A stretch of 40,237 nt of DNA from Patescibacteria group bacterium (lineage in GTDB: Bacteria > Patescibacteriota > JACPGU01): contig JAKLDG010000002.1 in NCBI GenBank assembly GCA_022703645.1, positions 1-40,237 on the forward strand, written 5' to 3'. Below the pieces are notes generated by a model. That model made no database searches. It had not been told where the DNA came from and worked only from the letters and a program-made list of their open reading frames with translations. The stretch's first letter is position 1, and every line of letters begins with the position of its first letter. Shown in pieces: positions 9,879-40,237 of the stretch. The position numbers and the translations under genes were made by a program.

Positions 9879-10286
9879 TTATTTTATTATATTTTTAATA
9901 CACTCACAAACTCTCATTCCATTTTCGCCTTGCACCCATCCGTCTTTACATTTTCCGCATTTGGCAATCGCCTCTTTTCTCTTTTTTTGATATTCTTGCT
10001 CCTCGATTGGCAAGCATTGACATTTCTCTCCCCAATCGTGCCAGTTGCCATATTTGCATTGCCATTGCCTATTTTTTCGCCGTGCCATATCTTCAATGTC
10101 CTCGGGATAAAATACTCCCATAATGTCCGCTGTGTTGAGTGTTCTGCCCTCAAAGCCCACTGCTCCTTTTAGCCCAGCCTCCCAATCTCTTTGAAATCTC
10201 TCGGCTTTTGTTTCGTTTGTCCAAATTTCTATTCCCCCACGAACGAGTATCACTTTTTCTCGTCCGGTAATTTTATTCATTGTCAT
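9879..10286 (-). CDS. Hypothetical Cys-rich protein (135 aa)
   Basis: The C-terminal half is CKYGNWHDWGEKCQC...CGKCKDGWVQGENGMRVCEC (Zn-binding-like). Confidence 0.55.
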   Translation of the reverse strand: MTMNKITGREKVILVRGGIEIWTNETKAERFQRDWEAGLKGAVGFEGRTLNTADIMGVFYPEDIEDMARRKNRQWQCKYGNWHDWGEKCQCLPIEEQEYQKKRKEAIAKCGKCKDGWVQGENGMRVCECIKNIIK

Positions 10287-10995
10287 AATTTTTTCCGGTT
10301 GGTTTTTGTTCTTTAATTTTTAAGTAATAGGCTTGTAGCTTTCCCCATTTACTTTCTAATTCCGCAGGGGTGGTTATGGTTGGCGCATATTTATCAGCAA
10401 TAATCTTTTCCGCAAAATTTATGGCGTTGACTATTTTGATAAATCCAAATTCTTCCAATAATGTTCTACACTTTTCTCTCACTGGATTACGAGTAAACCA
10501 AGTCTTATAAATTGGATTCAAGTTCTTAAATCTGAAAATAATCTCTGCTATCTGTTTTTCTATTGGACTGTTTTGGTCAATAATTTCTTTATCCACTACC
10601 GAAACGCCAGTTTCGGAATTATTTATTACTTTCTTTTTCTTTATTACTCTTTTTTCTTTATTACTTATAGTCTGGATTTTCCCTACTTGGGTTTTTCCCA
10701 ACTTGGGTTTTTCCCGAGTTGGCTCAATATGGATATGCCAATCTTTTCTGCCGTCCGGTCGTTTCACTCTTTCGAGATAGCCAAAAGTTTCTAGTTCTTT
10801 GACTGCGTTGTTAGTTCCGTCAAAATTATCTCTACTCTCTTTCGCTAATCTTTCTACTGCGAAGTCCCAATTTTCCGGTTTAGAATAAATTAGTCCGTAT
10901 AAGCCTTTGGCTTTCAGGCTTAGGTTTTTATCAGCCAAAATAGTGTTTTTGACTTGGGTAAAACCAACCTCGTCTTTTTTTAGTTTCTCTTTCAT
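10273..10995 (-). CDS. Replication-initiator/organizer-like protein with N-terminal winged-helix domain
   Basis: The N-terminus GFTQVKNTILADKNLSLKAKGLYGLIYSKPENWDFAVERLAKES...ELETFGYLERVKR matches the phage replisome-organizer/DnaD-N-like wHTH pattern. It is followed by a K-rich linker that contains DNA-level iterons and by a separate C-terminal domain. The start is set at ATG 10995; the track start at 11013 is TTG. Confidence 0.55.
   Translation of the reverse strand: MKEKLKKDEVGFTQVKNTILADKNLSLKAKGLYGLIYSKPENWDFAVERLAKESRDNFDGTNNAVKELETFGYLERVKRPDGRKDWHIHIEPTREKPKLGKTQVGKIQTISNKEKRVIKKKKVINNSETGVSVVDKEIIDQNSPIEKQIAEIIFRFKNLNPIYKTWFTRNPVREKCRTLLEEFGFIKIVNAINFAEKIIADKYAPTITTPAELESKWGKLQAYYLKIKEQKPTGKNYDNE
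10622..10721. repeat. Origin-like repeat block: 3x TTTATTACT (17-18-bp spacing) followed by 3 tandem 16-bp iterons
   Basis: TTTATTACT occurs at 10622, 10640 and 10657. The iterons are GGATTTTCCCTACTTG (10674..10689), GGTTTTTCCCAACTTG (10690..10705) and GGTTTTTCCCGAGTTG (10706..10721). The 16-bp period is out of codon phase. Confidence 0.6.
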
Positions 10996-12073: not shown

Positions 12074-12694
12074 TTAGTAAACGCTTAATTCTTCCTCTTG
12101 ATAAATTTCTACTCCGTCAATTTTCATCAAGCCGGAACGAACATCGGCGCGGATTAAACTTTCGTCAATAACCCAATATTTTTTTGGAACTTTATTCAAA
12201 TCGACCACTTTGAATTTTGTCACCATACGAGTTTTAACCATTCCGCTTTTGCTTTGGATTGTCGTTTCTTGTTTTTCTACTGTTGGCACTACCATATTTT
12301 CAAGTGCCTTTTTTTGGCTAATCTTATTTTTCTTAGCCTCCTCAATCGCTTTTTTTCTCGCCTCCTCTTGCAAACGCATTTCTTCTTCTCGTCTTTTTTT
12401 CTCAATTTCTGCACGATAATTTATTATCGCTCTTTTAATTTGCGCCTCCATTTCGTCATAAGGTTTTAACGCTCCTTTGAAGTCTGCGTTTATCTTTTTC
12501 AAAGTTTCATTCAAAGGCTTGGTGTAATTCAAACGAATTTCCTCAATCCTTTTTGCACGAGCTTTGACTTGCGATAATAACTCGGTAGCTTGCATTACTT
12601 CTTTTTCATTGGAAATTGTCATTTTTGATACCTTGGTTGTCATTGCCTTAGTATCTTTTTTTATTTCCTCTAATTTTTTGTCATTTTGTTCCAT
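12074..12694 (-). CDS. Coiled-coil recombination-module protein (Gp157/DUF1351-like)
   Basis: TELLSQVKARAKRIEEIRLNYTKPLNETLKKINADFKGALKPYDEMEAQIKRAIINYRAE, followed by an E/K/R-rich coil. The start is set at ATG 12694; the track start at 12727 is GTG. Confidence 0.5.
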   Translation of the reverse strand: MEQNDKKLEEIKKDTKAMTTKVSKMTISNEKEVMQATELLSQVKARAKRIEEIRLNYTKPLNETLKKINADFKGALKPYDEMEAQIKRAIINYRAEIEKKRREEEMRLQEEARKKAIEEAKKNKISQKKALENMVVPTVEKQETTIQSKSGMVKTRMVTKFKVVDLNKVPKKYWVIDESLIRADVRSGLMKIDGVEIYQEEELSVY

Positions 12695-12747
12695 TGTTTT
12701 TGATATTAAATAAATTATTTCAAACACGATATCCCAGTCTCTTTTTT

Positions 12748-13614
12748 TTATTTTTTCCCACCTCCTTTCTCTTTCAATCTGTTTTTAGCAATTAACAACC
12801 CTTTGAATGCTTGGAAATCTTTGTCGTGATTTTCCATACCGAGATTAACGACCTTAAAATCTCCGGTGTCTTTTTTGATATGTAATATCATTCTTTCTTC
12901 ATAATCTGTGCCAGTTTCCATTCTGTCTGCCTCGAGATAAGCGGAAACTTGAAATGGCACTGTATCAGATAAATAATTGCCGGTCTTATGGTCAACTAAT
13001 GTCATTTTCCCATTGACAATAGCTTTAAGGTCTAGCGTTCCAACATAGTCTATGGCGAGGTCAAAATCTTTCTGTTGTTTCTTGGTAAGCTTCAAATATT
13101 GTGGCAATGTGATATAATCTCGTTCGCCTGTTTCACAGAAAAATTTGCTTTCATACCAAGCCATATACACTATTTTTTCACTCTGAATAAATTTAACCTT
13201 ATTCTCACTCTCCCAAGTTTTGAAAGCAATCACGCCGTTCAAAATTTTCTCATCGGTTGGCAATTTAATTTCTTTGCCTTTGGATATTTTGCTCTTGATG
13301 TAGCAATCTATCCAATTATGGACTGCGGTGCCGATATTTCCTGCGGTGTCTCTCTTTTCTCTGTAAAGTCCGCAAGCGGTATAAATATCGTCTGTTCTAA
13401 TAAGGTTTCCGCTCTCGATAATATCAATCAAGTGGTTTCGAGTTAGTTTTATCGCCCAAGCCATTAAAATGTCCGGACTGCCGACTAAGCCTGTCACTCC
13501 GCTCACAGATGTAATTATTCTGCCAATGTCTGTTCGGATATACCAATGCTTGTCCTCGTAAAATTCAATTACAATTTTTTTATTGTAAAGTTCAATCAAT
13601 TTTGTTGGTTTCAT
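12748..13614 (-). CDS. PD-(D/E)XK exonuclease (RecB/Cas4-like fold, no Cys cluster)
   Basis: 288 aa. GTAVHNWID, then IDYVGTLDLKAIVNGKMTLVDHKTG (D...D-x-K), then a QVSAYLEA (QxxxY-like) motif. It is adjacent to the annealase. Confidence 0.55.
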   Translation of the reverse strand: MKPTKLIELYNKKIVIEFYEDKHWYIRTDIGRIITSVSGVTGLVGSPDILMAWAIKLTRNHLIDIIESGNLIRTDDIYTACGLYREKRDTAGNIGTAVHNWIDCYIKSKISKGKEIKLPTDEKILNGVIAFKTWESENKVKFIQSEKIVYMAWYESKFFCETGERDYITLPQYLKLTKKQQKDFDLAIDYVGTLDLKAIVNGKMTLVDHKTGNYLSDTVPFQVSAYLEADRMETGTDYEERMILHIKKDTGDFKVVNLGMENHDKDFQAFKGLLIAKNRLKEKGGGKK

Positions 13615-13624
13615 TTTTTGTTTA

Positions 13625-14416
13625 TTAAGAATTTAACAAAGTTTTTAGTCCTATCTCTGCTCTTTTTTCCGAAATATCTTTGAATGATGTCCATTTTATG
13701 CTAGTTTTTTTCTGAAATAACTCTAACGCCTCTTGTTCTGTTTTTGCTCCTAGCTTATGAAGCACGAACTTAACTTTATCAAGGGTTGTCTGTTTTGGTT
13801 TTACTTCTTTGATAGGCTCATAAGTTATTTCCGGCTCTTTGGTTTGTTTGACTGTTGGACTAACCATATCTTCGGTTATCTTTTTTGCGCCGATGTCTTT
13901 GAATTCATTTTTGCCATAAACATCAGAAGCGATACCGAGTTGCGAAGCACATTTTTTTAGTGCGTCTGTTGAGGCGGATTTCAAATCATTCCCATAGTCC
14001 AAAGCCTCTTGACTGCCTCGTTTGAATTTCATATCTGCTCTACCAAACTGCTCTTTGATTATTCTTACATTTCCGTCTTTGTCTCGGATAGTCAAACGAC
14101 CTTGCACCCATACTAAATTTCCCTCTCTGCCTTTGTCGATAATTTGAAAATCCCACGACCAACCAAAAACATAATTGAGAACTTTCGTGACATAAGTTCC
14201 GGTCACATATTCCCATTCTCCGCCTCCTTTGGCTGGTCTTTTGTAGATATGATTAGCTGGTGTTCTACCCAACATAAAAGCAAGTTGCCGTTCAGAAACA
14301 AAAGAGTTCGACATTGCCAATTTTGGCTCTGCGACTACCAGTTCTTTACTTACAACCTGCTTTTTTGAAATTTTTTTTACAACCTTTTTCTTGGTTGGTT
14401 TTTTTGTCTTTTTCAT
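13625..14416 (-). CDS. Rad52/22-family single-strand annealing protein
   Basis: 263 aa. YVTGTYVTKVLNYVFGWSWDFQI...GRLTI...DYGNDLKSASTDALKKCASQLGIASDVY matches the Rad52/Sak-type core pattern. Confidence 0.75.
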   Translation of the reverse strand: MKKTKKPTKKKVVKKISKKQVVSKELVVAEPKLAMSNSFVSERQLAFMLGRTPANHIYKRPAKGGGEWEYVTGTYVTKVLNYVFGWSWDFQIIDKGREGNLVWVQGRLTIRDKDGNVRIIKEQFGRADMKFKRGSQEALDYGNDLKSASTDALKKCASQLGIASDVYGKNEFKDIGAKKITEDMVSPTVKQTKEPEITYEPIKEVKPKQTTLDKVKFVLHKLGAKTEQEALELFQKKTSIKWTSFKDISEKRAEIGLKTLLNS

Positions 14417-14445: not shown

Positions 14446-14474
14446 ATTATAAATTGTTTTCTGTCTTTTGTAAA
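14446..14474 (-). promoter_or_regulatory. Sigma70-like promoter: TTTACA-17 nt-TATAAT
   Basis: The minus strand reads TTTACA (14474..14469), a 17-nt spacer and TATAAT (14451..14446). It is about 30 nt upstream of the annealase ATG. It shares CTTTACAAAAGACA with the 17.83-kb promoter. Confidence 0.5.
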
Positions 14475-14485
14475 GTGATACAAAT

Positions 14486-16933: not shown

Positions 16934-17320
16934 TTATTTTTTCTCTACATATTTTTTAACTTCTACAACCTCACTTCCTTCATAACTTTTTTCAATCAAC
17001 ATTTTTGCTCTTTTTTTATCTCTCGCTTTCAAAACTTTTGACCAAGTTGTTCCTGATTTTTTCTTGCTTACAACATTATAATATTCTCCTTCTTCAATTT
17101 CTCTAATTCTTTCCTCTATCTGTTGCTCTACTATTTCAATTATTGGGTCTGTCCAATCTAGTGAAGCTAATTTTAACGAAATATTGAACACTCTTGCTCT
17201 GCTTGTGCTGGATTCAAAATTCAATTCTACTTTGGTTAAATTTTTATCTTTTGAAAAATAATCAACCTCATAAATTATTTTTCCGTCTCTGCTTGTTTCA
17301 ATTTTTTTTTCTTCGTTCAT
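16934..17320 (-). CDS. Hypothetical protein (128 aa)
   Basis: ATG-initiated ORF with no recognised motif. Confidence 0.55.
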   Translation of the reverse strand: MNEEKKIETSRDGKIIYEVDYFSKDKNLTKVELNFESSTSRARVFNISLKLASLDWTDPIIEIVEQQIEERIREIEEGEYYNVVSKKKSGTTWSKVLKARDKKRAKMLIEKSYEGSEVVEVKKYVEKK

Positions 17321-17337
17321 TTTTTTATTTTTAATTA

Positions 17338-17727
17338 TTATTTAACTAATTCTTCAACTTGTGTCTTGTGAAACAAGTGATAGGTTTTCGGATAAATCAT
17401 ATCTTCCAATTCTTCTCCCTCTTTATTGACTGGGTGTATCCAAGTCAATCCTTTCACTTTTGATTTTTCTCCTTTGATAACTTTGAAGCCTGCCTCTTTC
17501 CATTTATTGAATGTCTTGCAATCTACATAAGGGATACCCTCTAAATTTTGTTCTCTCATTGCTAGTAGTGTGAAATAAAAACTATAATAACTGTAATTGC
17601 TTCCTGCTTCTCGATGTAATGCTTTGGCTGTTTCGTCGTTGTCTGCTAATTTTTTACTAGCTTGCCATTGTTCTCTAAGGCTTTTGAAATACTCTTTTTT
17701 TTCTTCTTTTGTAAATGTTTTTTTCAT
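17338..17727 (-). CDS. ArdC N-terminal-domain-like (DUF1738-like) ssDNA-binding protein
   Basis: 129 aa. NYSYYSFYFTLLAMREQNLEGIPYVDCKTFNKWKEAGFKVIKGEKSKV...YHLFHKTQVE resembles the ArdC-N pattern (YsG.N...L...TfkQ....G..VrKGEk...vFn..Q). It is the first gene after the early promoter. Confidence 0.5.
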   Translation of the reverse strand: MKKTFTKEEKKEYFKSLREQWQASKKLADNDETAKALHREAGSNYSYYSFYFTLLAMREQNLEGIPYVDCKTFNKWKEAGFKVIKGEKSKVKGLTWIHPVNKEGEELEDMIYPKTYHLFHKTQVEELVK

Positions 17728-17820
17728 TGGCTTATTATTAGTTATTTATTTTTTGTCTTTGAGATTGAGCTATCGGGTTATGTATTACTTTTGCCCGGCT
17801 GTTTTCTCTCTGACATTTAC

Positions 17821-17849
17821 ATACTAGAATACTTTTTGTCTTTTGTAAA
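17821..17849 (-). promoter_or_regulatory. Candidate early promoter: TTTACA-17 nt-TAGTAT
   Basis: The minus strand reads TTTACA (17849..17844) and TAGTAT (17826..17821). The -35-proximal sequence CTTTACAAAAGACA is shared with the promoter at 14446..14474. Confidence 0.45.
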
Positions 17850-17868
17850 GAGATAGAAAAGGTCTAAC

Positions 17869-23380: not shown

Positions 23381-25204
23381 TTACGCTATTCCCCAATCCG
23401 CTTTTTCTTGTTCGCGCGACAGGGATATTTTGATTTTATCAATTAAATTTTCTATATCTAAATCATTACTAAAATAATTATCTCCCGAAATTTGAATCGT
23501 GATATTTTTTCCTCCGCCAGTCATTCCTCCTGCGTTGGGATTATATTTTTTTGGCACAACTGCCTCTCCCTCGTGTAAAATTGCCATAGTATCTCTCGGC
23601 ACATAATTTGTTCCGACTGCTAAGGTTGGTAAATCTGACACTGCGGAAGACACATTGCCTATTTTTCCAATATCTACTCCCGGCACTTTATTCATTTTCT
23701 CAATCAATTTATTAAGCTGATTGATGACCGCATTTATCATAACTGTAATAGCGGAAACAATGCTCTTGAAAATTCCGGCGCCGAAATTGTAAATCCCCTT
23801 AAAAATATTTTCAAACATTGTTTTTGCGTCTTCCCAAGCCTTTTTCCAATTACCAGTAAAAATATCTATGGCTATTTTGAATACGCCAGAAAATAAAGCC
23901 CAAGCAACTTGAAATACGCCAACTATGGCTTGCCAAATACCGGCAAAAAATGTCTTAACATTTTCCCAATTTTCTTTCCAAAATTTTAATGCCTCATCAC
24001 TTCTCTTTTTTAATTCTTGAAATAATGGAATTACATATTGCTCATAAAAATTTACCATTGCTTGAAAGACTGCTTTCAATTTATCTTGCATACCTCCCCA
24101 GTTTTCATTCCAAGCTTTTGCCAATAAAAAGACTATCGTTCCAATAGCGAGGATTGCCAAAGTGACTGGAGCCATTGCAATTACAACTGATATTCCCCAA
24201 GCGACAAATGCGCCAGTCAAAACAGCCAGCACAGCAACCATTACTGCTTTTCTATTTTCTACATCACTAAAAAATTCTTTCAATAAATTATAAACTGGCT
24301 CAATATAAGTCCAAGCTAATTGAGCAAAGTTCTGAATAGCATTGACAACATTGGTAAAAAAGTTTATAATATTTTCCTTATTAGCGTCTATCCAAACGAT
24401 AAAATTACTAGCGGTAGTTCTTAAAATATCAAAAATACTTCCCTCTCGGACTACTCCCTCTTGACTGATACCGACAATTTCTCTCAAAGCCATTGAAGTA
24501 TTATCTTTAAGCGTTGACCATAAACCGGATAATGACTTGGCTTGTTGCGCCATCATTCCGTGAAATTTTCCGCCCTCATCAGTCATACTTTGCAAAGCTT
24601 TTTGCACTTCGGGATAGCCAACTTTTCCTGCCGTCACTAATTCATTTACTTTCTCGACTGACACTCCCATAGTGGAAGACAAAGCCTCATAAATTGGAAG
24701 TCCACGCATAGCAAATTGACGAATATCAATCGTCATTGCTCGTCCTTGTGTTTTGAGTGTTCCAAGTAAATATCCTAAATCTCCAATCGGCACATTTAAT
24801 CCGGCAGAAATATCGCCAAGCATTTTCATTCCGTCCACTGCTTCATTGCCAGTCATTCCAAAAGCCATTAACTGTTTTGTGGTGGTGGCTAATTCAGGAA
24901 ATTCAAAAGGCGTTTCAGCAGCGAATTTTGAGATATTTTTCAAAATATTTCCTGCTTCCTCCGCACTGCCTGTCATCGTGGTCATTGCGATTTTTGTCTG
25001 TTCAAAATCGGCGGCTGATTTTACTCCGGCAACGCCTAAAGCAGTGATTCCAGCGACAGAAGCGCCAATGCCAACGGCTACTTTTTGACCAAGATTAGCA
25101 AAGCCCGAGCCTAAATTACTAAGAGTGCTATTGGCAGATTTTAGTCCGCCGGACATCTCGTCTTTTAGTCTTAATATCACATCTAATTGAGTTTGTTCAG
25201 CCAT
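23381..25204 (-). CDS. Tail tape measure protein
   Basis: 607 aa with a TP901-type core (FEQTKIAMTTMTGSAEEAGNILKNISKFAAETPFEFPELATTTKQLMAFGM...LGDISAG), internal TM-like segments, and a position after the G/GT chaperone. Confidence 0.9.
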   Translation of the reverse strand: MAEQTQLDVILRLKDEMSGGLKSANSTLSNLGSGFANLGQKVAVGIGASVAGITALGVAGVKSAADFEQTKIAMTTMTGSAEEAGNILKNISKFAAETPFEFPELATTTKQLMAFGMTGNEAVDGMKMLGDISAGLNVPIGDLGYLLGTLKTQGRAMTIDIRQFAMRGLPIYEALSSTMGVSVEKVNELVTAGKVGYPEVQKALQSMTDEGGKFHGMMAQQAKSLSGLWSTLKDNTSMALREIVGISQEGVVREGSIFDILRTTASNFIVWIDANKENIINFFTNVVNAIQNFAQLAWTYIEPVYNLLKEFFSDVENRKAVMVAVLAVLTGAFVAWGISVVIAMAPVTLAILAIGTIVFLLAKAWNENWGGMQDKLKAVFQAMVNFYEQYVIPLFQELKKRSDEALKFWKENWENVKTFFAGIWQAIVGVFQVAWALFSGVFKIAIDIFTGNWKKAWEDAKTMFENIFKGIYNFGAGIFKSIVSAITVMINAVINQLNKLIEKMNKVPGVDIGKIGNVSSAVSDLPTLAVGTNYVPRDTMAILHEGEAVVPKKYNPNAGGMTGGGKNITIQISGDNYFSNDLDIENLIDKIKISLSREQEKADWGIA

Positions 25205-25205
25205 A

Positions 25206-25795
25206 TTATTTTTGATTATCTTTCGCTTGTTTAATTAGTTCTGCTTTATCCTCCGCCTGCATACAATCTACAATTTCTTCTATAAAAAATGCAGGCTGGG
25301 CATTGTAGGTATAAAAATCCCAGCCCATTCGCCTGCATATTATGTATCTTGCGTATTCCGGGGATAAACTTTTACCTTTGCCGGGAAATGCTAATGCGTC
25401 AACTAATTGCTTTCCGTCAGTTTTTTTTTATTCAGTTGATTGATTTCTAAATCTAGCGCAGTTCCGTCGGCTTCCTCTATAAAATCTTTAATTGCTTCTA
25501 TGCTCGCCTCATATTCCGTTCCGTCAATGTCAATCAATTTTTTGATAGCGGTTTCTCTAGCAAAGTTATTGGCTTCCGTCAATGCACTAAAATCAAATTC
25601 CATTCCTGCAAATATTTCCTCGCCTGTTCCTCCCTCTTTCATTTGCAAGATTTTTTCTCCGTTGATTTTCTTATCTCCTAACATTTTCATTCTAAATTCT
25701 TCAATTTCAGATTTTGAAAAATAAGTGATAATCTCAACTTTTTTACCGGAGGGTAATTCAAAGATTTTAGTGGGTCTTTTATATTGGTTTGGCAT
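25206..25795 (-). CDS. Tail assembly chaperone -1 frameshift product (gpGT-like)
   Basis: Hand translation of the -1 frame from the A-run gives TDGKQLVDALAFPGKGKSLSPEYARYIICRRMGWDFYTYNAQPAFFIEEIVDCMQAEDKAELIKQAKDNQK. This is open across the whole 198-nt gap and stops 1 nt before the tape-measure ATG. Confidence 0.6.
25403..25795 (-). CDS. Tail assembly chaperone (gpG-like)
   Basis: 130-aa acidic protein between the major tail and tape measure genes. It ends just after a slippery A9 run. Confidence 0.7.
   Translation of the reverse strand: MPNQYKRPTKIFELPSGKKVEIITYFSKSEIEEFRMKMLGDKKINGEKILQMKEGGTGEEIFAGMEFDFSALTEANNFARETAIKKLIDIDGTEYEASIEAIKDFIEEADGTALDLEINQLNKKKLTESN
25421..25429 (-). promoter_or_regulatory. 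Slippery site (A9; A AAA AAA) for -1 programmed frameshifting
   Basis: The minus strand reads AAT AAA AAA AAA CTG ACG. Homopolymer run of 9. Confidence 0.6.
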
Positions 25796-25815: not shown

Positions 25816-27006
25816 TTAATAAGTTGATACTCCGTTGACTAGGGTTATATCAAGAGCAATCGCCTCGCTATTGTCGTATTCCACAAAAAATTCAGTTTCG
25901 TCAAATACATATTCGCCGATGGTGTTCTTGTTTTCCAACTTGCTTGGCTTGATATTGTATAGCTTGATAGTCAGACTGCAATAATCTCCACCAGTTCTTA
26001 CAATGTCGCCAGTGAATAGAATTGTGCAGGCTTTTTTGGCAATATCATTGTATTGGCGCGCGTCCTCTGCTCTTTCAAATAACTTCTTTATCGTCAAACT
26101 TGCGTCAGGAACTCCCGGAAGGATAACTGGGTCATTACTTCCCGAAGCGTGCCTTAAAACCATTTCACGGCTAATTTCTAGCTTCAAATCATCTACTGGC
26201 GTTGCTAAGGCTAAACTAGCGACATTAGCGGTTGCCTCTGTTTCGTTTGCTCCTAAACCGACTAACATTTGCCCAAATTTGAAAGGTCTTTTCAAAGTAG
26301 CATAACTGGCAGTCAGTGGTTTCAAAGTTATCAATGCTCCGGCGGTTGCTGTGATAGTGGTTGACGCACAAGTGATTGACTTATTTCCCGACACAATAGT
26401 TGCTATGGTCACATCAGTAGCCACTCCGTCTTCCCAAACTTGAATTACATCGCCAGCAACTAATCCATAACAAGGTTCAGGGTCATATTCCTCATTAAAT
26501 TCTACGCTAGTCATTCCTGCTCCTGTTAAAGCGGTCAAAAGAGTTCCAGCGTTAAATTTGGCTTTTGCCACAATGTCAGCCTCAAAGACTAAATAGCCTT
26601 TATCAAAAGACATTGACAATTTATTTACTTGGCAACCGACAAATCTATGCACGGCATTTCCTTTGACAATTTCAATAGTGTAATAAGCACTATCATCAAC
26701 TGTAAATGGGTGCGTGTATCCGTCAGCGTCTCCACTCTCTGTTCCAAGAGCCAAAGCCATATTGAGAAAATATCCGGCATTGGTCGGGTCTGCGTAAAAT
26801 TTAACTTTTCCGCCGTGAGTTCGTTGACCTTGTAAAATCAAATTCGATTTCCAGTCAATCCCGACAATCTGTTCCACTCGTTCATTTTTCAAATCACTAC
26901 TTAAATCTTCTTCCAAGATAGGAACAAAAATACTTGGAATTACTGCGGTTGTTGCATCGGCTTGTTTGCCGATAGCGAAGTAAGCGGAGTCTGCTTTATA
27001 GTTCAT
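25816..27006 (-). CDS. Major tail (tube) protein with inserted/extra domain
   Basis: 396 aa, immediately upstream of the chaperone and tape measure genes and downstream of the neck genes. Beta-rich, with a T/A/G-rich central segment. Positional call. Confidence 0.6.
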   Translation of the reverse strand: MNYKADSAYFAIGKQADATTAVIPSIFVPILEEDLSSDLKNERVEQIVGIDWKSNLILQGQRTHGGKVKFYADPTNAGYFLNMALALGTESGDADGYTHPFTVDDSAYYTIEIVKGNAVHRFVGCQVNKLSMSFDKGYLVFEADIVAKAKFNAGTLLTALTGAGMTSVEFNEEYDPEPCYGLVAGDVIQVWEDGVATDVTIATIVSGNKSITCASTTITATAGALITLKPLTASYATLKRPFKFGQMLVGLGANETEATANVASLALATPVDDLKLEISREMVLRHASGSNDPVILPGVPDASLTIKKLFERAEDARQYNDIAKKACTILFTGDIVRTGGDYCSLTIKLYNIKPSKLENKNTIGEYVFDETEFFVEYDNSEAIALDITLVNGVSTY

Positions 27007-27010: not shown

Positions 27011-27190
27011 TTAACTTAATTTATTATCTAATTTTTTAACTTCCTCTTTCTTTTTCTCTTTAATAATTTGCACAAAATTTGGATTGCTTATTTCTTTTTC
27101 CGTTTCAATAATGGCTTTCGACTTTACCATTCCAATACCCGGTAAAATCAATTCCTGCTCCGAGATATTTTGATATTTTTTCTTTGGCAT
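27011..27190 (-). CDS. Small hypothetical protein (59 aa)
   Basis: Hand translation: MPKKKYQNISEQELILPGIGMVKSKAIIETEKEISNPNFVQIIKEKKKEEVKKLDNKLS. Confidence 0.35.
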   Translation of the reverse strand: MPKKKYQNISEQELILPGIGMVKSKAIIETEKEISNPNFVQIIKEKKKEEVKKLDNKLS

Positions 27191-27202
27191 AGTATTTAAT
27201 TA

Positions 27203-27294
27203 TTTATTACTTAATCTTATTTATTACTTATACTCGGGAAAAACCCAACTAGGGTATTTCCCAACTAGGGAAAATCGGCACTAGGCTCTATCGA
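27203..27294. repeat. Second origin-like repeat block: 2x TTTATTACT plus 3-4 tandem 16-bp iterons (array inverted relative to 10674..10721)
   Basis: TTTATTACT occurs at 27203 and 27220. The iterons are TACTCGGGAAAAACCC (27231..27246), AACTAGGGTATTTCCC (27247..27262), AACTAGGGAAAATCGG (27263..27278) and a degenerate CACTAGGCTCTATCGA. ACTCGGGAAAAACCCAA is identical to the minus strand at ~10.70-10.72 kb. Confidence 0.6.
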
Positions 27295-27715
27295 CAAAAT
27301 CGTGAATGGTTATCGTAAATTCTGCGAAGATAAAAGGTTCTTCTAACATTATATCATAAAAATTTTCTTCTGCAACATCTACTTTCATACAGTTGCCGGA
27401 AAGGTCGGAATTCTTGTCAAAAGCCTCATTTACCATATCAACTGCCGTGTCCAAAATTGTCTCTGCTTCGGCTCGTGTTTTGTTGCCGGTAAATTCATAA
27501 ATCAATAACAAAGTATAGCTCCAAGTCCGCTCGTTTGAGTGAGTGTCTGCCACTCTGCCACCGCCAGCTTTTTTATAAAATTCTGCCGTTGGAAAACCGG
27601 TAAATTCTTTTTTATGTCCATATCTAACTTCAGAAAAAAGCAAAACATTGTCTTGTTCTTCAAGAGCCTCGAGCATATTTTTTATCAATGGCGTGAAAAT
27701 AGAATAACCTTTCAT
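27281..27715 (-). CDS. Neck/tail-terminator-like protein
   Basis: 144 aa, lying between the HK97 gp10-like gene and the major tail gene. Positional call only. Confidence 0.4.
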   Translation of the reverse strand: MKGYSIFTPLIKNMLEALEEQDNVLLFSEVRYGHKKEFTGFPTAEFYKKAGGGRVADTHSNERTWSYTLLLIYEFTGNKTRAEAETILDTAVDMVNEAFDKNSDLSGNCMKVDVAEENFYDIMLEEPFIFAEFTITIHDFVDRA

Positions 27716-28086
27716 TTTAATTCTTTTACTACTTTACTTAAAACTTGTTTCATTTCATTTTTAATGGCATTTTTTGCCTTGTTATATCCTAACATCATAA
27801 ATGGTCTAGCTTTCATAAATCTTGTTCCCTCGTGAACAAAGGTGGCATAGGTAGTGTGCGGACTAATTACGACGTGTGGTTCGGCTCTTAATGCCAAGGA
27901 ACTTGAAACGCTGATACTGGTTCTTAGTCTGCCTGTTCTGACTGGCGTTCTTAATTTGCTCTCTCTTTCAACCATATACCCTGACCTCATCAATGCGTCC
28001 ATTACCATTTTTTTGATATTCTCCGGCGCGCTTTCCCATTTACTAACTAATCTACTTAATCCTTTTATTTCAATATTGTATTTCAT
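27712..28086 (-). CDS. HK97 gp10-family neck protein
   Basis: 124 aa. ERESKLRTPVRTGRLRTSISV...TYATFVHEGTRFMKARPFM matches the HK97 gp10 family pattern (aPv.TG.Lr.si...YA..vE.Gt...a.PF). Confidence 0.7.
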   Translation of the reverse strand: MKYNIEIKGLSRLVSKWESAPENIKKMVMDALMRSGYMVERESKLRTPVRTGRLRTSISVSSSLALRAEPHVVISPHTTYATFVHEGTRFMKARPFMMLGYNKAKNAIKNEMKQVLSKVVKELK

Positions 28087-28088: not shown

Positions 28089-28394
28089 CTATAATTTAGC
28101 CAATAAAACTTCCATATGTGGAAAAGCACCATAATCGAAATTTTTAATTGACTGAACTGTATATTCCACTTCTTCCAATAATATTCTGTCGCTTTCTTTC
28201 AAATCAATTTGCTGACAAAATAATTTGAAAATCTTGCCAATTTTTTGACTGCCAATTTCTTCCAAATCTCCGTAAGGTTGTAGCATACCTGCTTGGGCGG
28301 TCAAATATTCTTGATAATCGCTCTTTGAAGTATCCGCAATATCGGTTAATCTTTTTGTAGTAAATTCAGTTTTTAGTAATGATTCAAACGACAT
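28089..28394 (-). CDS. Head closure protein (SPP1 gp16 / HK97 gp9-like)
   Basis: About 101 aa. ...AQAGMLQPYGDLEEI...DRILLEEVEYTVQSIKNFDYGAFPHMEVLL is typical of head-closure proteins. The start is set at ATG 28394; the track start is TTG. Confidence 0.55.
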   Translation of the reverse strand: MSFESLLKTEFTTKRLTDIADTSKSDYQEYLTAQAGMLQPYGDLEEIGSQKIGKIFKLFCQQIDLKESDRILLEEVEYTVQSIKNFDYGAFPHMEVLLAKL

Positions 28395-28995
28395 TTTGTT
28401 TAGTAAATTCTTCAATTATTTCTTTAGCTAATTCAAAATCTTTCCATTGGTCATCTTTATAAGAAACAGAATAGTCGCCAATTTTTTCACTTTTGATTTC
28501 TCCGTCTGCGTGATTGCTAAAATTCATAATGCCGGAGGCTAAAACCATTGTAGCGAAATTTATCTGTTTTGGCACTGTTGACGAGTAGCCAAATTGACCG
28601 GTTATTTTGATATTTCGGATTCCAGAGTTAAAAACCGAAATTAAGGGGTTTCCGGGTGCGACAATCAGTTTACGCATAGGCTGGCTGTTGTAGGGATAGC
28701 CGTAGCAATGCGTATCTAGCTCCAAGGTGTATAATATGGTTCCGTCGGTATCAAGTATCTCAACAGAGGTAATTTCGAGGCACTCGTCGATATACATTTC
28801 CTCTTTTCCGTTGCCGTCAAAGTATCTGACTTCGTCCTCTGCGTCATCTTCAAGTATGAAGTTTCTGCCGGTTCGCCTGTCAATAATTGCTTCGGCAGTT
28901 TCAATCCAGCTTTCAATCTGCGTTTCAAATCCACTCTCAATTTCCGTAAGAGTGTAATTTTCGATTTCTTCAACTGAACAATATCCTTTTAACAT
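28384..28995 (-). CDS. Head-tail adaptor (gp6-like connector) with C-terminal extension
   Basis: The N-terminus SVEEIENYTLTEI...QIESWIETAEAIIDRRTGRNF resembles gp6-like head-tail connector proteins. Confidence 0.6.
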   Translation of the reverse strand: MLKGYCSVEEIENYTLTEIESGFETQIESWIETAEAIIDRRTGRNFILEDDAEDEVRYFDGNGKEEMYIDECLEITSVEILDTDGTILYTLELDTHCYGYPYNSQPMRKLIVAPGNPLISVFNSGIRNIKITGQFGYSSTVPKQINFATMVLASGIMNFSNHADGEIKSEKIGDYSVSYKDDQWKDFELAKEIIEEFTKQNVV

Positions 28996-28999: not shown

Positions 29000-30736
29000 T
29001 TATAATTTTACAGAATAAGGTTTCGTTTTTTTTGAATAAGGATTTACTTTTCTGCCATAATGGCTGTTTTTTCTAGTATAAATCCTTTTCAATCTTTTTG
29101 CAATAGCTGTCAATTCTATGCTTCGATTGCTGTTGACGGTTATTGCTCCCACGATGTCAATATTTCTGTCATTTGATAAAGTTTCTATACCTGACAATTC
29201 AATTCCTCGTTCGCTGGTTTCTCGATATGCTCCAAAAATATTGATTGCTCTCTCGCTTAATAACTGGTCTGTGCCGTGTAAATTTATATTTCTTTCCGAG
29301 TTAGTTTCTGCCTCTGCCTCTAAGATAATGCCTCTTTCGGAAGTAGTATCAATTTTTCCAGTCAATTCAATTTGACGAATTTCGTTAGCTGTTTTTTCTC
29401 CGGTGGCTTCTATTGTTCTTTGAGAATATGCCGAATTTTTACCGCTCAATTCAATATATCTTTCTTCTTGACTTTCATCAATTCCGCTAAGTTCTATTAT
29501 TCGTTCCTCTATTTTAGTATTTGCTCCAACAAGTTCTATTTCTCTGTCCTCATTTTTTGAATCAATACCGCCAACCTCTAAACTTCTTTCTGTCTGACTA
29601 AAATTTTCAGCATTTAATTCAATGCTTCTTTCGTCATCAGCACTTTCTTTACCAGTTATTTCAAAGGCTCGTTCTGTTTGAGTAGTATCAATTCCAGCTA
29701 CTTCAATTATTCTTTCTCCAACTCCTCTGATTGTTCCTTCCAATTCAATTTCTCTTTCAGTGTTTGTTTGGTTGATTCCTTTGACTTCAATATTTCTGTC
29801 GCCAGTAATTTTTATTGAACCAATCAAATCAATATTTCTTTCGCTTTGAGCATTATCAATTCCGTGTAATTCAAATTCTGTTTCTGTTTCTGTTTGATTT
29901 TGTCCGGCAAGGTTTATTGCTCTTTCTGATTGGCTAAATTCTTTACCCACTAATTCAATGTCTCGATTATCTATCGCTTGATTTTCTCCGTGCAACTCAA
30001 TAGCTTTTTCGGTATTGGCAAGTTCTTTTCCGGTCAATTCTATCGCTCGGGTTTCTAATAAAGTTTCAATACCGCTCAATTCAATGTTCCGGTCGCTGAC
30101 ATTATTTTGCGTTCCCTCAATTTCAATCGCCCTGTCGCTCGTCTCAATTTTTTTAGCAGATAACTCAATACTTCTTTCTGAATTGACTATGGTCTTACCG
30201 GATAACTCAATCACTCGTTCTGATAAACTATTATCTTCTCCGTGAATATTTATAATTCTATCAGAATTTGATAAATCTTCTCCGTGAACTTCTACGGCTC
30301 GGTCTGAATTGGTAATATCTTTACCGGCTAAATTTATTGCTCGGTCTGAATTTGATATTTCTTTTCCTTGAAGTTCTAATGCTCTTTCGCTGTTGGAAAT
30401 ATTTTTTCCAGTGATATTTATTGCTCGTTCGGAGTTAGTATTTTCTTTTCCAGTTAGCACAATACTCCTGTCTGAATTTGCAGAATTTTTACCAGTGATA
30501 ATAATTGCTCTATCTGAATTTGTCGAGGCTTTACCGGATAATTCTATGCTTCTGTCTGAACTATCAGTTGTTCCTCCTCCTCCGCCTGTTGCACTAACTC
30601 CCCAAAAAGGCGTTCCTTTATCTTGATAATCTAACCCATTCAAATCTACATCTGATTTTGCTCCGACATTAAGAAAAGGCTTTCCTTTATGTTGCCAATC
30701 CATTGTCTCCAAGTTTTCTTTTGTTGGTAAAGCCAT
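29000..30736 (-). CDS. Repeat protein: 59-aa N-terminal module, 35 tandem 14-aa repeats, 29-aa basic tail (fibre or solenoid candidate)
   Basis: 578-aa ORF. Residues 60-549 parse into exactly 35 units of 14 aa (consensus S-[DE]-R-x-I-[EN]-L-x-G-x-x-x-x-N) with no indel. Confidence 0.8.
   Translation of the reverse strand: MALPTKENLETMDWQHKGKPFLNVGAKSDVDLNGLDYQDKGTPFWGVSATGGGGGTTDSSDRSIELSGKASTNSDRAIIITGKNSANSDRSIVLTGKENTNSERAINITGKNISNSERALELQGKEISNSDRAINLAGKDITNSDRAVEVHGEDLSNSDRIINIHGEDNSLSERVIELSGKTIVNSERSIELSAKKIETSDRAIEIEGTQNNVSDRNIELSGIETLLETRAIELTGKELANTEKAIELHGENQAIDNRDIELVGKEFSQSERAINLAGQNQTETETEFELHGIDNAQSERNIDLIGSIKITGDRNIEVKGINQTNTEREIELEGTIRGVGERIIEVAGIDTTQTERAFEITGKESADDERSIELNAENFSQTERSLEVGGIDSKNEDREIELVGANTKIEERIIELSGIDESQEERYIELSGKNSAYSQRTIEATGEKTANEIRQIELTGKIDTTSERGIILEAEAETNSERNINLHGTDQLLSERAINIFGAYRETSERGIELSGIETLSNDRNIDIVGAITVNSNRSIELTAIAKRLKRIYTRKNSHYGRKVNPYSKKTKPYSVKL
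29090..30559 (-). repeat. 42-bp-period coding tandem repeat (35 diverged copies)
   Basis: This is the DNA equivalent of residues 60-549 of the 578-aa ORF. The copies are diverged at the nucleotide level but strictly in register. Confidence 0.85.
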
Positions 30737-34654: not shown

Positions 34655-36004
34655 TTATATACAACCTTTACTTTTTAGCAGTTGCATATCTTGTATTCTG
34701 ATATTAACATATTCTCCTTTTTTTTGCAACTTGCCTTGATATTTGAAATCACTCTTTGCGATTATTCCCTCGGAAGTTATCTCCTCTATGGCTTTTCTCT
34801 CCGGTAATTCCATTTTTTCTAATTTCTTTAACCATTTATCATTAAATAATTCCTCATTCTCTCTAGCGTAAGTGAATCGGTCGGCACTCTTGCTCAAAAA
34901 ATGAGTAATGGCATTTCTGACATATCCGAATTTCTTTTTTTTCTGCATTGCTCTTAGGAAAAAATCAACATCTTCGCCACCATTCATAAATTCTTCATCT
35001 AATCCGCCTAATTCTTCCCAAATGTCTTTCTTGACCTTAAAACAAAATCCACTAGGCATACTTTCATATCCGGCAATATCCTCTAGGCTTTTTACAATTA
35101 CTCCGTTTTCTAATTTTATGCTTATGCCGTATTTAGTCACTTTTCTGTCAGGAATGTATTGAGCAATGCCGGTAATATCGCTATCGTCCTTTACCATTTT
35201 CATTAAGTATTCGTGAACTGGGATAGTATCGTCATTCAAGAAAATTAAATTTTCTGTTTCTGCCAGTCTAGCTCCTTTATTACAACTCTCGGAAAATGTG
35301 CCACCGCTAATTATGATAATATTAAATAACTTATTGTCTAATGTTTTTAAGCAGTCTGCCAATAGTTCGTGCTGGTCGTGGTGGGGGATAATAATATCAG
35401 CAATTTTTTTAAGGTGTTTCTTATATAAATATTTCATCCATTTTTCACTATCATTGCCGGTTGAAATTCCTCCCGGTCGGTTGAATGTTTTGAACAATAT
35501 CTTATCGCAAAAAACTGGTTTGTGTCCGGCTCGAGTTAGTCTTATCCATAATTCCCAATCATCATATCTTCGCATATCAGGACTAAATTTTGGTTTTGCA
35601 CTGGCTCTTATCAATGACATTGTGCTAATTCCGTGAAAGTAGTCAATAAATTCTTTGCTCTCCATATCTTCCGGCATTTCTCCTTTGTTGATATTAAATT
35701 CTGTCCGGTCGATAATAAATTTCCCGAAAGCCCAATCAGCCCATTTATTTTCCTGCAAGGTTTGGTATAAATTACTTAGACAATCCTTATCTAAATCTAA
35801 GTCATTATCACAAAAAAATAAATACTCTCCTTTGGCTTTTTTTAATCCCTCATTTCTTGCCCAACTAGCGCCTTTAGCGTCTTTATCAATAATTTCAATT
35901 ATCTCAATATTATTGTAGGTCTGTTCTTTAACCGATTTCAAAGATTCGTTTTTCTCTGTTGCTCGGTTTGGAATAATTATTGATATTAGTGGCAATTTTT
36001 TCAT
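34655..36004 (-). CDS. Two-domain GT2-family (GT-A fold) glycosyltransferase
   Basis: Domain 1: LISIIIPNRATEKNESLKSVKEQTYNNIEIIEIID...GASWARNEGLKKAKGEYLFFCDNDLDL (DxD). Domain 2: ADIIIPHHDQHELLADCLKTL...SCNKGARLAETENLIFLNDDTIP. Confidence 0.75.
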   Translation of the reverse strand: MKKLPLISIIIPNRATEKNESLKSVKEQTYNNIEIIEIIDKDAKGASWARNEGLKKAKGEYLFFCDNDLDLDKDCLSNLYQTLQENKWADWAFGKFIIDRTEFNINKGEMPEDMESKEFIDYFHGISTMSLIRASAKPKFSPDMRRYDDWELWIRLTRAGHKPVFCDKILFKTFNRPGGISTGNDSEKWMKYLYKKHLKKIADIIIPHHDQHELLADCLKTLDNKLFNIIIISGGTFSESCNKGARLAETENLIFLNDDTIPVHEYLMKMVKDDSDITGIAQYIPDRKVTKYGISIKLENGVIVKSLEDIAGYESMPSGFCFKVKKDIWEELGGLDEEFMNGGEDVDFFLRAMQKKKKFGYVRNAITHFLSKSADRFTYARENEELFNDKWLKKLEKMELPERKAIEEITSEGIIAKSDFKYQGKLQKKGEYVNIRIQDMQLLKSKGCI

Positions 36005-36024
36005 TATTTTAATATTGTGCCAAT

Positions 36025-36046
36025 GGCTGGGATTTTACTCCCAGCC
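36025..36046 (-). terminator. Perfect 8-bp GC-rich stem-loop just downstream of the capsid gene (attenuator or RNA-stability element)
   Basis: ggctggga (36025..36032) pairs with tcccagcc (36039..36046), with a 6-nt loop. No U-tract follows on the minus strand. Confidence 0.45.
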
Positions 36047-38124: not shown

Positions 38125-40237
38125 TTATTCAATTACTGGTAATATTGTGCAACGACAATTTATGATATTTTCGGGACTGCCGTTTGGGTCTCCCGGATAA
38201 TCTAATTCTTCATCGCCCACCTCAAATTTTTTATCAATATTGACGACTTGTCCGTCAGCGTGGCTATGTCCGTCTCTCGTTTTTTTGTCTTGTGTTGCCA
38301 ACCATTCCTTTTTTTTCACTACGCCGGATTGCTTATATCCAAATACTGTTCCTGCATTGTTAGCAGATAGCACCTCTGTTCTCGATATAGTTTTGCTACT
38401 GCTTAAAATTCTTAATCCATAAACCTCCTCAATTCTTTTTGCCAATTCGCCAATACTCTCTCCGTTTAATACGCCGTCTGCTAAGGTGTTTTTGATTTTC
38501 TTAATAGTCGTCTCATTTACTTCTTCTGCGAATTTCATTGCTTTTAATTCTATCCATTCGGCAGTTATCGGGTCGCTGATTTCAAAATCTTTTTTAATTG
38601 ATTTCTCTCCGACTTGTGCCAACGCTTCATTTCCAGCCTCCTCAACTATCTTTGTGAAAGTAGGCGTTGATTTCTTTATAAATATTTTAACCTCTTTTTT
38701 GAAATTAAGCAAATCCAATTCAGAACTTTTAACAGTCTTGCCAAGTTTTGATTTTTTCAAAGCCTCTAAGGCTCTCTCTTGTTGTTCTCGGAATAATGAA
38801 TTGACCATTGCCTTAAATTTTTTCTCCCAACCGATAATAGACTTGTCGAAAATATCCCAAGCTTTTTTTCTTTTATCTTCTTCCTCTTTTTTTACAGCAT
38901 TTTTACTAATTTGATTTTGAATTGATTTTGCTACTTCGATTGTTATTTTGGAAATTAAATCTTCTTTTAGTCTTAGCATTTTTCTTCCTCTAACTGCTTT
39001 GCGATAAATCTTTTTTAGTTGCTCCTCTTTTCTTCTTGTGTAAAATTCCTTAGCGGTTATGTTCCCTCCAATCTTAATAATAGCAAAACCTGATTTTGTA
39101 ATTTTCATAGCTTTATTCGTATCGTCATCGTCTTCGCCTGTGTCGTTCGTATTTTCAATACCCATAGGCATAAGGGATAGCGGTTGATAAATAAAATCTC
39201 CTCCCTCTATTGGGTCGTAGCCTTGCTCCATTCTTATTTCGTTGGTCGTCATCCATTTATTATGGGCTTTGATATAGTGGTCATCGAGGGAAGCTTTGTC
39301 GTCCGGTGTTGGGTCAATGTTCAATAAAAATAAATCGTCTCCATATTCTGTCACTAAAAATTGATTCAAGACATCGACGTGCTTTTCCATTTTTGGTCTA
39401 ATTGTTTCCGATAAGAAAGCATACACTCCAGCTTCTGCGTTGGCTCGGTTCACATCGTCAGTTATCGCCATAATTGCCTTGTTCACTCCGAGGGTCATTA
39501 AAACATCATCTCGGTTGGCAATTCTCATATTGGCAAAGTCCATATCTTTTTGAGAAACGCTCACTGCCTCATATTTCAATCCGTTTGTGAGAATAGAAAC
39601 TTTACCGGCATTATCTACACCACCATATTTCTCATTCCATTTTTCCAAAATTTCTTCCTTGTCCTCTTTGTTCATTGCTTTTTCACTTGTCAGCAAAGCG
39701 TCTGGTCTAGCAGAGTTGTAAAAAAATCTAGTATTCCATTTTTTAGCATAGACATCAGAACGGATAACTTCCATTACTGATTGCACTGCTCCATAACCGT
39801 AATAGTCTGAAAGTGGGTCAGGTTCTTTGAAATGTATCACATCTTCCGCCGGAAATTTTATCTCTTTTCCGTTTAAGCGAAATTTATAATAGCTAATCCC
39901 TCCGTCATTGGCTGGCACGATAGTAGTCAAGTCCGGTCTCATCAACCATAACTCAATTACTTGTTTGTTTGCTCCTCTAGCTTTATACCAATAGCATTGT
40001 CCTAGCAATGACAAATAAATCGAAGTTATTTCGATTAACTGGCTACCGCTCATTACTGGGTTTGGATTTTGAAGTAAGTCAAGAAGTTCGTGCTGTTCAA
40101 TTTCTCTTGCTTTCAATCCTCGTAATTGATAAAGTTCATATTCTATCGTGGACATTTTCTCCCCGATTTTCTTTGTGCAAGAGTGGACAAGTGAGCTTGC
40201 TCTGAATGATTGCAAATAATCTCTCGTGCTTGGTTCA
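38125..40237 (-). CDS. Portal protein (HK97 family) fused to a Mu F / SPP1 gp7-like head-morphogenesis domain; the 5' end continues at 78..163 across the junction
   Basis: The portal part reads LLDLLQNPNP...LLGQCYWYK...YYGYGAVQSV. The C-terminal ~250 aa end in TRDGHSHADGQVVNIDKKFEVGDEELDYPGDPNGSPENIINCRCTILPV, the MuF motif. An SD-preceded internal ATG at 40155 is an alternative start. Confidence 0.85.
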   Translation of the reverse strand, partial: EPSTRDYLQSFRASSLVHSCTKKIGEKMSTIEYELYQLRGLKAREIEQHELLDLLQNPNPVMSGSQLIEITSIYLSLLGQCYWYKARGANKQVIELWLMRPDLTTIVPANDGGISYYKFRLNGKEIKFPAEDVIHFKEPDPLSDYYGYGAVQSVMEVIRSDVYAKKWNTRFFYNSARPDALLTSEKAMNKEDKEEILEKWNEKYGGVDNAGKVSILTNGLKYEAVSVSQKDMDFANMRIANRDDVLMTLGVNKAIMAITDDVNRANAEAGVYAFLSETIRPKMEKHVDVLNQFLVTEYGDDLFLLNIDPTPDDKASLDDHYIKAHNKWMTTNEIRMEQGYDPIEGGDFIYQPLSLMPMGIENTNDTGEDDDDTNKAMKITKSGFAIIKIGGNITAKEFYTRRKEEQLKKIYRKAVRGRKMLRLKEDLISKITIEVAKSIQNQISKNAVKKEEEDKRKKAWDIFDKSIIGWEKKFKAMVNSLFREQQERALEALKKSKLGKTVKSSELDLLNFKKEVKIFIKKSTPTFTKIVEEAGNEALAQVGEKSIKKDFEISDPITAEWIELKAMKFAEEVNETTIKKIKNTLADGVLNGESIGELAKRIEEVYGLRILSSSKTISRTEVLSANNAGTVFGYKQSGVVKKKEWLATQDKKTRDGHSHADGQVVNIDKKFEVGDEELDYPGDPNGSPENIINCRCTILPVIE
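40161..40237. repeat. Terminal direct repeat, copy 2 (identical to 1..77)
   Basis: Same 77 nt as the window start. Confidence 0.95.

Follow-up and report, generated by a model that had tools for sequence, protein, structure and literature searches.

Why would a tailed phage carry, in a gap between its structural genes, a second copy of the repeats that lie within its own replication initiator gene? The question is raised by contig JAKLDG010000002.1, a stretch of 40,237 nt that was analysed over its whole length and is referred to here as the window. It represents an uncultured tailed phage of ~40 kb, with nearly all genes on the minus strand. One repeat block (locus A) is situated at ~10.7 kb in the initiator gene, and the other (locus B) at ~27.2 kb, upstream of the tail tube gene. 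We conclude that B is very probably a copy of the phage's own origin core, ectopic and confined to this lineage. The sequence features make it likely that the initiator binds B. We estimate a probability of roughly 0.55 that B is an initiator-binding site comparable to oriR of phage SPP1. A selected role of B in replication can be suggested only tentatively from the sequence.

The motifs that the two loci have in common are confined to them. The repeat TTTATTACT has five exact matches in the window, all on the plus strand (10622, 10640, 10657, 27203 and 27220); shuffled sequences contain a mean of 1.3, and 2 of 100 reach five. There are four exact matches to GGGWWWWWCCC (10689, 10705, 27236 and 27252), compared with a mean of 0.19 in shuffles, none of 100 of which reaches four. 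Every copy of both motifs falls within 10.6-10.72 kb or 27.2-27.28 kb. The blocks can be aligned as a direct repeat of 92 nt with 72% identity (10637-10728 and 27200-27291) and as an inverted repeat of 52 nt with 81% identity (10668-10719 and 27232-27283). Local alignment of block B with the rest of the genome gives scores of 40 (direct) and 32 (inverted); 300 dinucleotide shuffles of the block gave 15.7 +/- 1.6 with a maximum of 22, which places the real similarity at a z above 10. The same match was recovered when the initiator gene was compared with the rest of the genome by blastn (64.6 bits, E = 1e-12). Mismatches between A and B are located in the spacers and A/T tracts: the 9-mers agree at 18 of 18 positions, and 6 of 13 positions of the spacer between and around them are mismatched.

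An earlier note on this DNA had described both blocks, and the motifs lie where it placed them, with a similarity far above that of shuffled sequences. It had also reported an exact 17-mer complement between the loci, which exists, at 10703-10719 instead of 10704-10720. A lone GGGAAAAAAC at ~17.9 kb, which it had related to the same repeats, is not a site: nothing there exceeds 8 bits by the iteron matrix described below.

Locus A is situated in the linker of the initiator protein (~residues 90-130), where its repeats encode …EPTREKPKLGKTQVGKIQTISNKEKRVIKKKK… and its 9-mers encode SNKE-type residues. The initiator matches PHROG replication-initiation and DnaD-like loader families (E from 7.5e-18 to 1e-7), and its N-terminus resembles a helix-turn-helix (HTH) of the winged-helix type (Pfam HTH_36 at 21.8 bits, under the cut-off of 25). 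Its closest cultured full-length relative is Rep of phage TP901-1, with which 80% of the query aligns at 27.7% identity. Phages with related replication modules were drawn from the protein database. In three of them (L016, L017 and L008, with 72%, 65% and 58% protein identity) we identified the layout of iterons and 9-mers at the same place in the linker. Each has three or four units of 16 bp of the form (A/T)A(C/G)TnGGGAAAA(A/T)CCC, with the A-tract always on the coding strand. After the iterons come GACTATAAGTAAYAAAG (with T in both L016 and L008, but C in L017) and additional 9-mers or a variant of them. In an alignment of 12 proteins, down to 33% identity, the S and N of the SNKE-type residues (residues 111-114) are invariant and the K and E are present in at least 90%, in a linker that is otherwise variable. 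This pattern is a signature of constraint at the DNA level. Because the same layout is found in three related phages, locus A can be read as an origin embedded in its gene. An initiator gene with an N-terminal HTH, an internal repeat array with an AT-rich element, and DNA-level conservation are all present and, judged on these sequence features, locus A is the primary origin. TP901-1, Tuc2009, lambda and SPP1 (oriL) likewise have an origin within the gene of their initiator. Separately, the 9-mer AGTAATAAA(G) is a cis element that is kept more deeply than the iterons, which differ in one group of homologues (P0005-P0008).

When a weight matrix was derived solely from the 11 iterons of L016, L017 and L008, exactly six positions in the window exceeded 18 bits, and A and B account for three each. 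The strongest remaining site reaches 12.3 bits, and shuffled genomes contain ~3-4 matches above 8 bits. The identification of B as a second origin-type block, also made by the earlier note, is thus sustained: the block is non-random, and it fits the iteron consensus of the family rather than being just a copy from its own genome. The polarity of the iterons differs between the loci, being (-,-,-) at A and (+,-,+) at B. Compared with four family origins, the B array scores 31, 32, 29 and 26 in the plus orientation and 21, 23, 15 and 16 in the minus orientation, and the 9-mer part of B fits the same four origins in the minus orientation. The outer units of B also carry unit-specific end features (ACTCGGG… and …AAAATCGG-ACTA). 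The whole array had previously been described as inverted. This holds for the outer two units, which are flipped relative to the TTTATTACT repeats when the four reference origins are taken as the standard, but not for the middle unit, which keeps the polarity that it has at A. As the units are GGG-N5-CCC pseudo-palindromes, a flip mainly moves the A-tract to the other strand.

B has the form of a small insertion. The 144-aa gene upstream takes its final codon and its TAG stop from B, whose other end is ~12 nt before the ATG of a small open reading frame (ORF). The copied stretch consists of the cis-acting core alone, without flanking initiator coding sequence. The second 9-mer is part of the 13-mer TATAAGTAATAAA, shared by three of the four family origins (window A, L016 and L008), and B retains both the 16-bp core spacing of the family origins and their distance from the last core to this 13-mer. 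The gap that holds B (27191-27280, 90 nt) had been called the only sizeable one in the structural operon; it is sizeable, but it is one of two minus-strand gaps of at least 60 nt in the structural module. The position of the companion gap (25205-25402) suggests that it is the frameshift region of the tail chaperones. Coordinates of these and other features are listed in Table 1.

Table 1. Features of the phage genome discussed in the text, in order of position (strands are those of the window).
Feature	Position	Strand	Remarks
Large terminase	217-1926	-	
DpdA/tRNA-guanine-transglycosylase-like protein	1787-3289	-	500 aa
QueC-like protein	4091-4894	-	
GTP cyclohydrolase	5145-5693	-	
QueE-like protein	5842-6486	-	
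QueD-like protein	6616-7074	-	
Replication initiator (replisome organiser)	10273..10995	-	240 aa from ATG; PHROG, Pfam, TP901-1 Rep
Locus A, AT-rich element	10622..10672	-	Three AGTAATAAA 9-mers (10622, 10640, 10657 on +)
Locus A, iterons	10673..10720	- (coding)	Three 16-bp units at 10705, 10689, 10673 (25.7, 25.1, 18.1 bits)
Two exonuclease-like proteins	12748-13614; 12074-12727	-	Exonuclease PHROGs, E 2.6e-20 and 1.9e-15
Rad52-type single-strand annealing protein	13625-14416	-	Rad52_Rad22 domain, E 2.6e-10
Promoter TTTACA-17-TATAAT	14474-14446	-	Upstream of recombination/replication operon
Promoter TTTACA-17-TAGTAT	17849-17821	-	Upstream of first early gene
Third promoter-like site	18038-18011	-	11/12 match
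Tape measure	23381-25204	-	
Tail tube protein	25816..27006	-	Precomputed PF18906 (Phage_tube_2), also on homologues; weak PHROG tail match
Small ORF	27011..27190	-	59 aa; immediately follows B; every relative has one of 53-59 aa
Locus B, miniature origin core	27203..27286		Insertion of ~84 nt; from alignment with 7 relatives and sequences/gene tables of 8
Locus B, AT-rich element	27203..27232	-	Two AGTAATAAA 9-mers (27203-27211, 27220-27228 on +), 17 nt apart
Iteron B1 TACTCGGGAAAAACCC	27231..27246	+	26.0 bits; orientation opposite to A
Iteron B2 TAGTTGGGAAATACCC	27252..27267	-	19.2 bits; orientation as A
Iteron B3 AACTAGGGAAAATCGG	27263..27278	+	20.3 bits; orientation opposite to A
Degenerate fourth unit CACTAGGC	27279-27286		After B3; contains stop codon 27281-27283
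144-aa gene	27281..27715	-	Candidate tail terminator by position after Neck1; last codon and stop from insertion B
Neck1	27712-28086	-	
Head-tail adaptor	28384-28995	-	
Portal	38125-40215	-	696-aa ORF, fused to Mu F-like minor head domain

Eight syntenic relatives, with tube proteins 62-70% identical to that of the window, have the 144-aa gene, the small ORF and the tube gene in the same order (L001/L004, L002, L003/L006, L005, L012, L013, L014 and L015). In all eight the junction between the 144-aa gene and the small ORF is 0-17 nt long or an overlap, without block B, from which we infer that the insertion is recent and lineage-specific. The conserved layout of A (in L016, L017 and L008) and the empty site of B (in the eight relatives) were read in separate loci. 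The earlier note had named a loss of the similarity in related genomes as a refutation, and this outcome is observed in all eight relatives; it shows a recent insertion and leaves the identity of B as an origin copy standing. No clustering of origin motifs elsewhere was detected in the fetched loci of relatives, in which the flanks are at most 10 kb (the distance from A to B is 16.5 kb). Similarly, none of 83 loci with homologues of the N-terminal domain of the initiator (1.18 Mb of flanks, at most 10 kb per side) has an ectopic match above 41 bits. A megablast search of INPHARED with 20 kb of the window and a tblastn search with the tube protein gave no match, and in IMG/VR no relatives of the initiator were identified and two scans for the iteron/13-mer pattern were empty. 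Exact-protein look-ups of the window proteins returned no record.

A comparable layout is known from SPP1. This phage has two origins of similar organisation, one of which (oriL) is located inside gene 38, whereas the other (oriR) is among the longest intergenic regions and lies in a segment that interrupts the conserved order of late genes (PMC6316719). The initiator gp38 binds oriL and oriR with nanomolar affinity, and gp38 bound at oriR has been proposed to block forks and thereby bring about the theta-to-sigma switch of replication, with the stalled forks then processed, according to the proposal, by exonuclease, annealing protein, SSB (single-stranded DNA-binding protein) and resolvase (PMC6316719; PMC3485210; PMC5737612). 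We identified in the SPP1 record a match of ~93 nt between gene 38 (~35950-36042) and the gap between genes 7 and 8 (~4878-4970), which is direct and extends over 95 gapped columns. Comparison of oriL and oriR by blastn yields a 76-nt match of 64.6 bits, the same score as that obtained for A and B.

Like the window, SPP1 has one origin copy in the initiator gene and a second in a gap that breaks the order of late genes, iterons and an AT-rich element in a second copy of comparable length, and genes on one strand, the purine-rich one. Genes for an exonuclease and an annealing protein are beside the replication genes in both, although for the window it is the presence of these genes alone that is shown. 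There are also differences. The SPP1 copies are colinear (45 direct versus 12 inverted), whereas in B the outer iterons and the AT-rich element are in opposite relative orientation. The neighbours of SPP1 oriR are the portal and scaffold genes, and it is accompanied by moron genes, whereas B lies between the candidate tail terminator and the tube and contains no genes. Binding of gp38 to oriR has been demonstrated, whereas binding of the initiator to B is predicted from sequence.

To our knowledge, SPP1 is essentially the only tailed phage with a studied second origin in the late region. The role proposed for its oriR, that of a fork barrier which sets off the change from theta to rolling-circle replication, is still a model. 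The earlier statement that two such loci are not a standard feature of small siphoviruses is fair as regards frequency (0 of 83 loci within 10 kb, and none in TP901-1), but it overlooked the precedent of oriL and oriR. The dual-locus layout is real and instructive but, given SPP1, is no new kind of thing.

Other replication systems share parts of this organisation. ORF13 (Rep) of TP901-1 and Rep2009 of Tuc2009 bind direct repeats within their own genes, which constitute the origin (PMC8965321). As in the window, an annealing-protein gene is close upstream of rep in TP901-1 (in the order Sak, ssb, rep); the counterpart in the window is the annealing protein, two exonuclease-like genes, one unassigned ORF and the initiator. 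Unlike the window, the TP901-1 genome has no second origin copy, the best match outside rep having 26.9 bits (E = 0.25). The origin of lambda, within gene O, resembles locus A in that dyad-symmetric iterons with A-tracts occupy the part that encodes a linker and are followed by an AT-rich unwinding region; unlike the window, lambda has a single origin. In satellite phage P4 (ori and crr) and at the control loci of iteron plasmids, such as P1 incA and the R6K origins, a second cluster of the initiator-binding repeats, several kilobases away from the origin, exerts its effect in cis as an enhancer or through looping or handcuffing, a layout similar to that of the window. Inverted iterons in iteron plasmids are typically bound in a different mode, which is regulatory instead of initiating. 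The P4, P1 and R6K loci belong to unrelated initiator families, are conserved, and are experimentally required or regulatory, whereas B is lineage-specific.

If B is an initiator-binding site of the oriR type, the N-terminal HTH of the initiator would bind the pseudo-palindromic GGG-N5-CCC units at B as it would at A, and B would behave like SPP1 oriR in forming a second nucleoprotein complex. The complex might fire as an auxiliary origin, or it might act as a tightly bound roadblock or a looping partner. A roadblock at B would stall forks coming from A and pass them to the exonuclease and annealing proteins of the phage, and processing of the stalled forks would promote the switch from circle-to-circle to concatemeric replication. 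The roles for B that the earlier note had suggested (second origin, termination, handcuffing and transcriptional control) are likewise hypothetical. The points in favour of an initiator-binding site are the confinement of the motifs to A and B, the E-value of 1e-12, the sites found with the matrix of the family, the kept spacing, the trimming to the core, and the SPP1 precedent.

Several observations weigh against this interpretation. Absence of B from all eight syntenic relatives means that there is no evidence of long-term selection. The block is present in one public run only, an anaerobic-digester metagenome, as contigs only. B has two 9-mers compared with three in A, one degenerate core (CGG for CCC) and mixed polarity (+,-,+), any of which could prevent it from firing as an origin. 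It resembles the L016 and L008 origins about as closely as it does locus A, and since the alignment scores are similar, they do not decide between its own genome and import as the source of B. The pattern of conserved motifs and diverged spacers could result from recent import instead of selection. No sequence similarity was found between the initiator and G38P of SPP1 (BLASTP E = 7.9), and the analogy with SPP1 is therefore architectural only and does not place the window in the SPP1 protein family. The GC skew is monotonic and says nothing about origins. The stronger claim, of a recently gained and working second initiator-binding locus that converges on the oriL/oriR arrangement of SPP1 with an unrelated initiator and is set apart by its flipped iterons, appears rather unlikely at present. 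On that reading the flipped outer iterons would give B a function different from that of A, for example as a polar fork trap or a looping partner that times the concatemeric switch, instead of a second start.

The most serious alternative is that B is a neutral scar, in which a short piece of origin, from this phage or from a co-infecting relative, was pasted into an intergenic junction by illegitimate recombination or by recombination through the annealing protein, and which has no selected function whether or not it is bound. That B is as close to the origins of relatives as to locus A fits recent import, and the phage encodes a Rad52-type annealing protein and exonucleases. The empty sites of the eight relatives, the single sample, the degenerate third core and the reduction to two 9-mers also fit a scar. 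However, the copy is trimmed exactly to the cis core, with core spacing and the core-to-13-mer distance retained despite the flipped units. All three iterons of B score like genuine ones, and the divergence from A is mostly outside the motif positions. Extra copies of an origin are in addition unlikely to be neutral, as they titrate the replisome organiser in lactococcal phages (the 'PER' phenotype; PMC8965321). We consider a scar possible but somewhat unlikely.

Alternatively, B might be a transcription element of the late operon, whether it terminates (intrinsically) or attenuates transcription, drives the tail genes from a promoter, or forms a roadblock in which bound initiator delays the tail genes until it is diluted. 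Its position, at the boundary between head-tail-joining and tail genes, would suit such an element, and the flip of the outer iterons puts a T-tract on the sense strand. One terminator-like match was identified on the sense (minus) strand (CCTAGTTGGG-AAATAC-CCTAGTTGGG followed by TTTTT, 27269-27244), but its stem contains four G-U pairs, and one such match was found where 1.1 are expected by chance. The fold of B as RNA is no better than that of shuffled sequences (z = -1.39), no U-tract follows the most stable hairpin, and Rfam has no match for B. Hairpins of single-stranded DNA are modest (~-10 kcal/mol, z of -2.6 to -5) and reflect the symmetry of the units. No promoter of the sigma-70 type (-35 and -10 hexamers with a spacing of 16-18 nt) was identified within 27191-27294, unlike upstream of the early genes, where such promoters match at 11 of 12 positions. 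Biologically, it is hard to see why a terminator should stand just upstream of the gene whose product is the most abundant protein of the tail, and the eight relatives do without an element at this place. We regard a transcription element as improbable.

On the subject of promoters, a 47-nt repeat with 79% identity (14438-14484 and 17813-17859) carries the minus-strand sigma-70-like promoters of Table 1.

The repeats might also have been reused at B for a different kind of cis function, for instance in partition (as in a centromere), in packaging, or in a miniature mobile element. This further proposal is very improbable. It has a model in the phage-plasmid N15, whose centromere sites are dispersed repeat clusters in late regions. 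In the window, though, no partition-type gene was identified in the parts of the genome that were scanned, the terminase is at least 13 kb from B, and the repeats at B are the very ones that relatives conserve in the gene-embedded origin. There are two copies only, without target duplication or extra terminal inverted repeats. An element resembling a miniature inverted-repeat transposable element (MITE) was considered on its own and rejected, one of the two copies in the genome being the gene-embedded origin, with no border duplication or additional terminal inverted repeats. Finally, a chimeric join of the two loci, which an assembly from a metagenome with the block in a single run might suggest, is scarcely credible: B is shorter than a read and differs by 19-28% from A, so that it is no collapsed or mis-joined repeat; its flanks are perfectly syntenic with those of relatives; the initiator and tube proteins are each found on three contigs; and an independent contig from the Logan assembly of the source run (40190 nt, depth 14.8) matches the region of B without differences, which argues against misassembly.

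Under the interpretation of B as an initiator-binding site of the oriR type, the window is an independent natural example of a second origin-type locus in a late region, with an initiator family unrelated to that of SPP1. Because B clearly arose as a small insertion, and relatives with an empty site are available for comparison, this example suggests that the two-locus design can evolve repeatedly. With its 84 bp, B is a minimal test object for the role of a second initiator-binding site. Simply comparing the initiator gene with the remainder of its genome is enough to detect duplicates of origin cores, which appear uncommon (none in the 83 related loci, within 10 kb, or in TP901-1). Were B a working second locus that was recently gained, the birth of a control element would be visible against the eight relatives that lack it.

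The contig has an exact 77-nt direct repeat at its ends (1-77 and 40161-40237), which leaves 40,160 bp of unique sequence; the genome is circularly closed or else terminally redundant. Along the direction of transcription, the portal is followed by head genes, the head-tail adaptor, Neck1, the 144-aa gene and block B, and then by the 59-aa ORF, tail tube, tape measure, distal tail genes, holin and early genes. The Rad52-type annealing protein and the two exonuclease-like genes (12074..14416, minus strand) are just upstream of the initiator with block A, after which come a 7-deazaguanine cluster and the large terminase. The assignment of the 144-aa gene as candidate tail terminator is based on synteny with the gene order of SPP1 and TP901-1; the protein has no PHROG match, and thus no family supports the call. 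The small ORF (27011-27190) has no Pfam or PHROG match. It shares with its homologues in L001-L015 a motif resembling a helix-hairpin-helix (…L-[IT]-[LI]-P-G-I-G-…-K).

Among the structural genes, the fusion of the portal to a Mu F-like minor head domain is also present in relative L012. An ORF of 578 aa (29000-30736, minus strand), between the head genes and the head-tail adaptor, contains at least 12 tandem repeats of 42 nt (14 aa), and relatives have ORFs of 759-1184 aa at this position. A family-2 glycosyltransferase is encoded directly after the major capsid gene in L012 (2736-4100) and L013 (1754-3124), and in the structural module of L014 (1-1155). An ORF of 449 aa (34655-36004) occupies the position of this glycosyltransferase in the window. 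The 7-deazaguanine (queuosine-precursor) DNA-modification cluster spans 1787-7074 on the minus strand, just upstream of the large terminase.

Three early genes have near-identical start regions (…TAATAATTAAATTAAAAAAAATGGACAAAGAA…; 8795-8851, 11650-11693 and 17297-17353), with similar N-termini (MDKE… or MNEE…) and similar upstream sequence; these may be shared contexts for translation initiation or regulation. Some features offer clues to the host. The sequence ahead of the start codons is AT-rich, and no Shine-Dalgarno sequence is obvious in it. Samples from anaerobic digesters and wastewater contain the phage. In the genome collection, the N-terminal domain of the initiator is matched best by a contig binned as Candidatus Parcubacteria, and the next matches are on contigs binned as Methanolobus, which are probably mis-binned. 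An envelope of a Gram-positive-like type is suggested by the holin_4_1 family and by the GH25 lysin of relatives.

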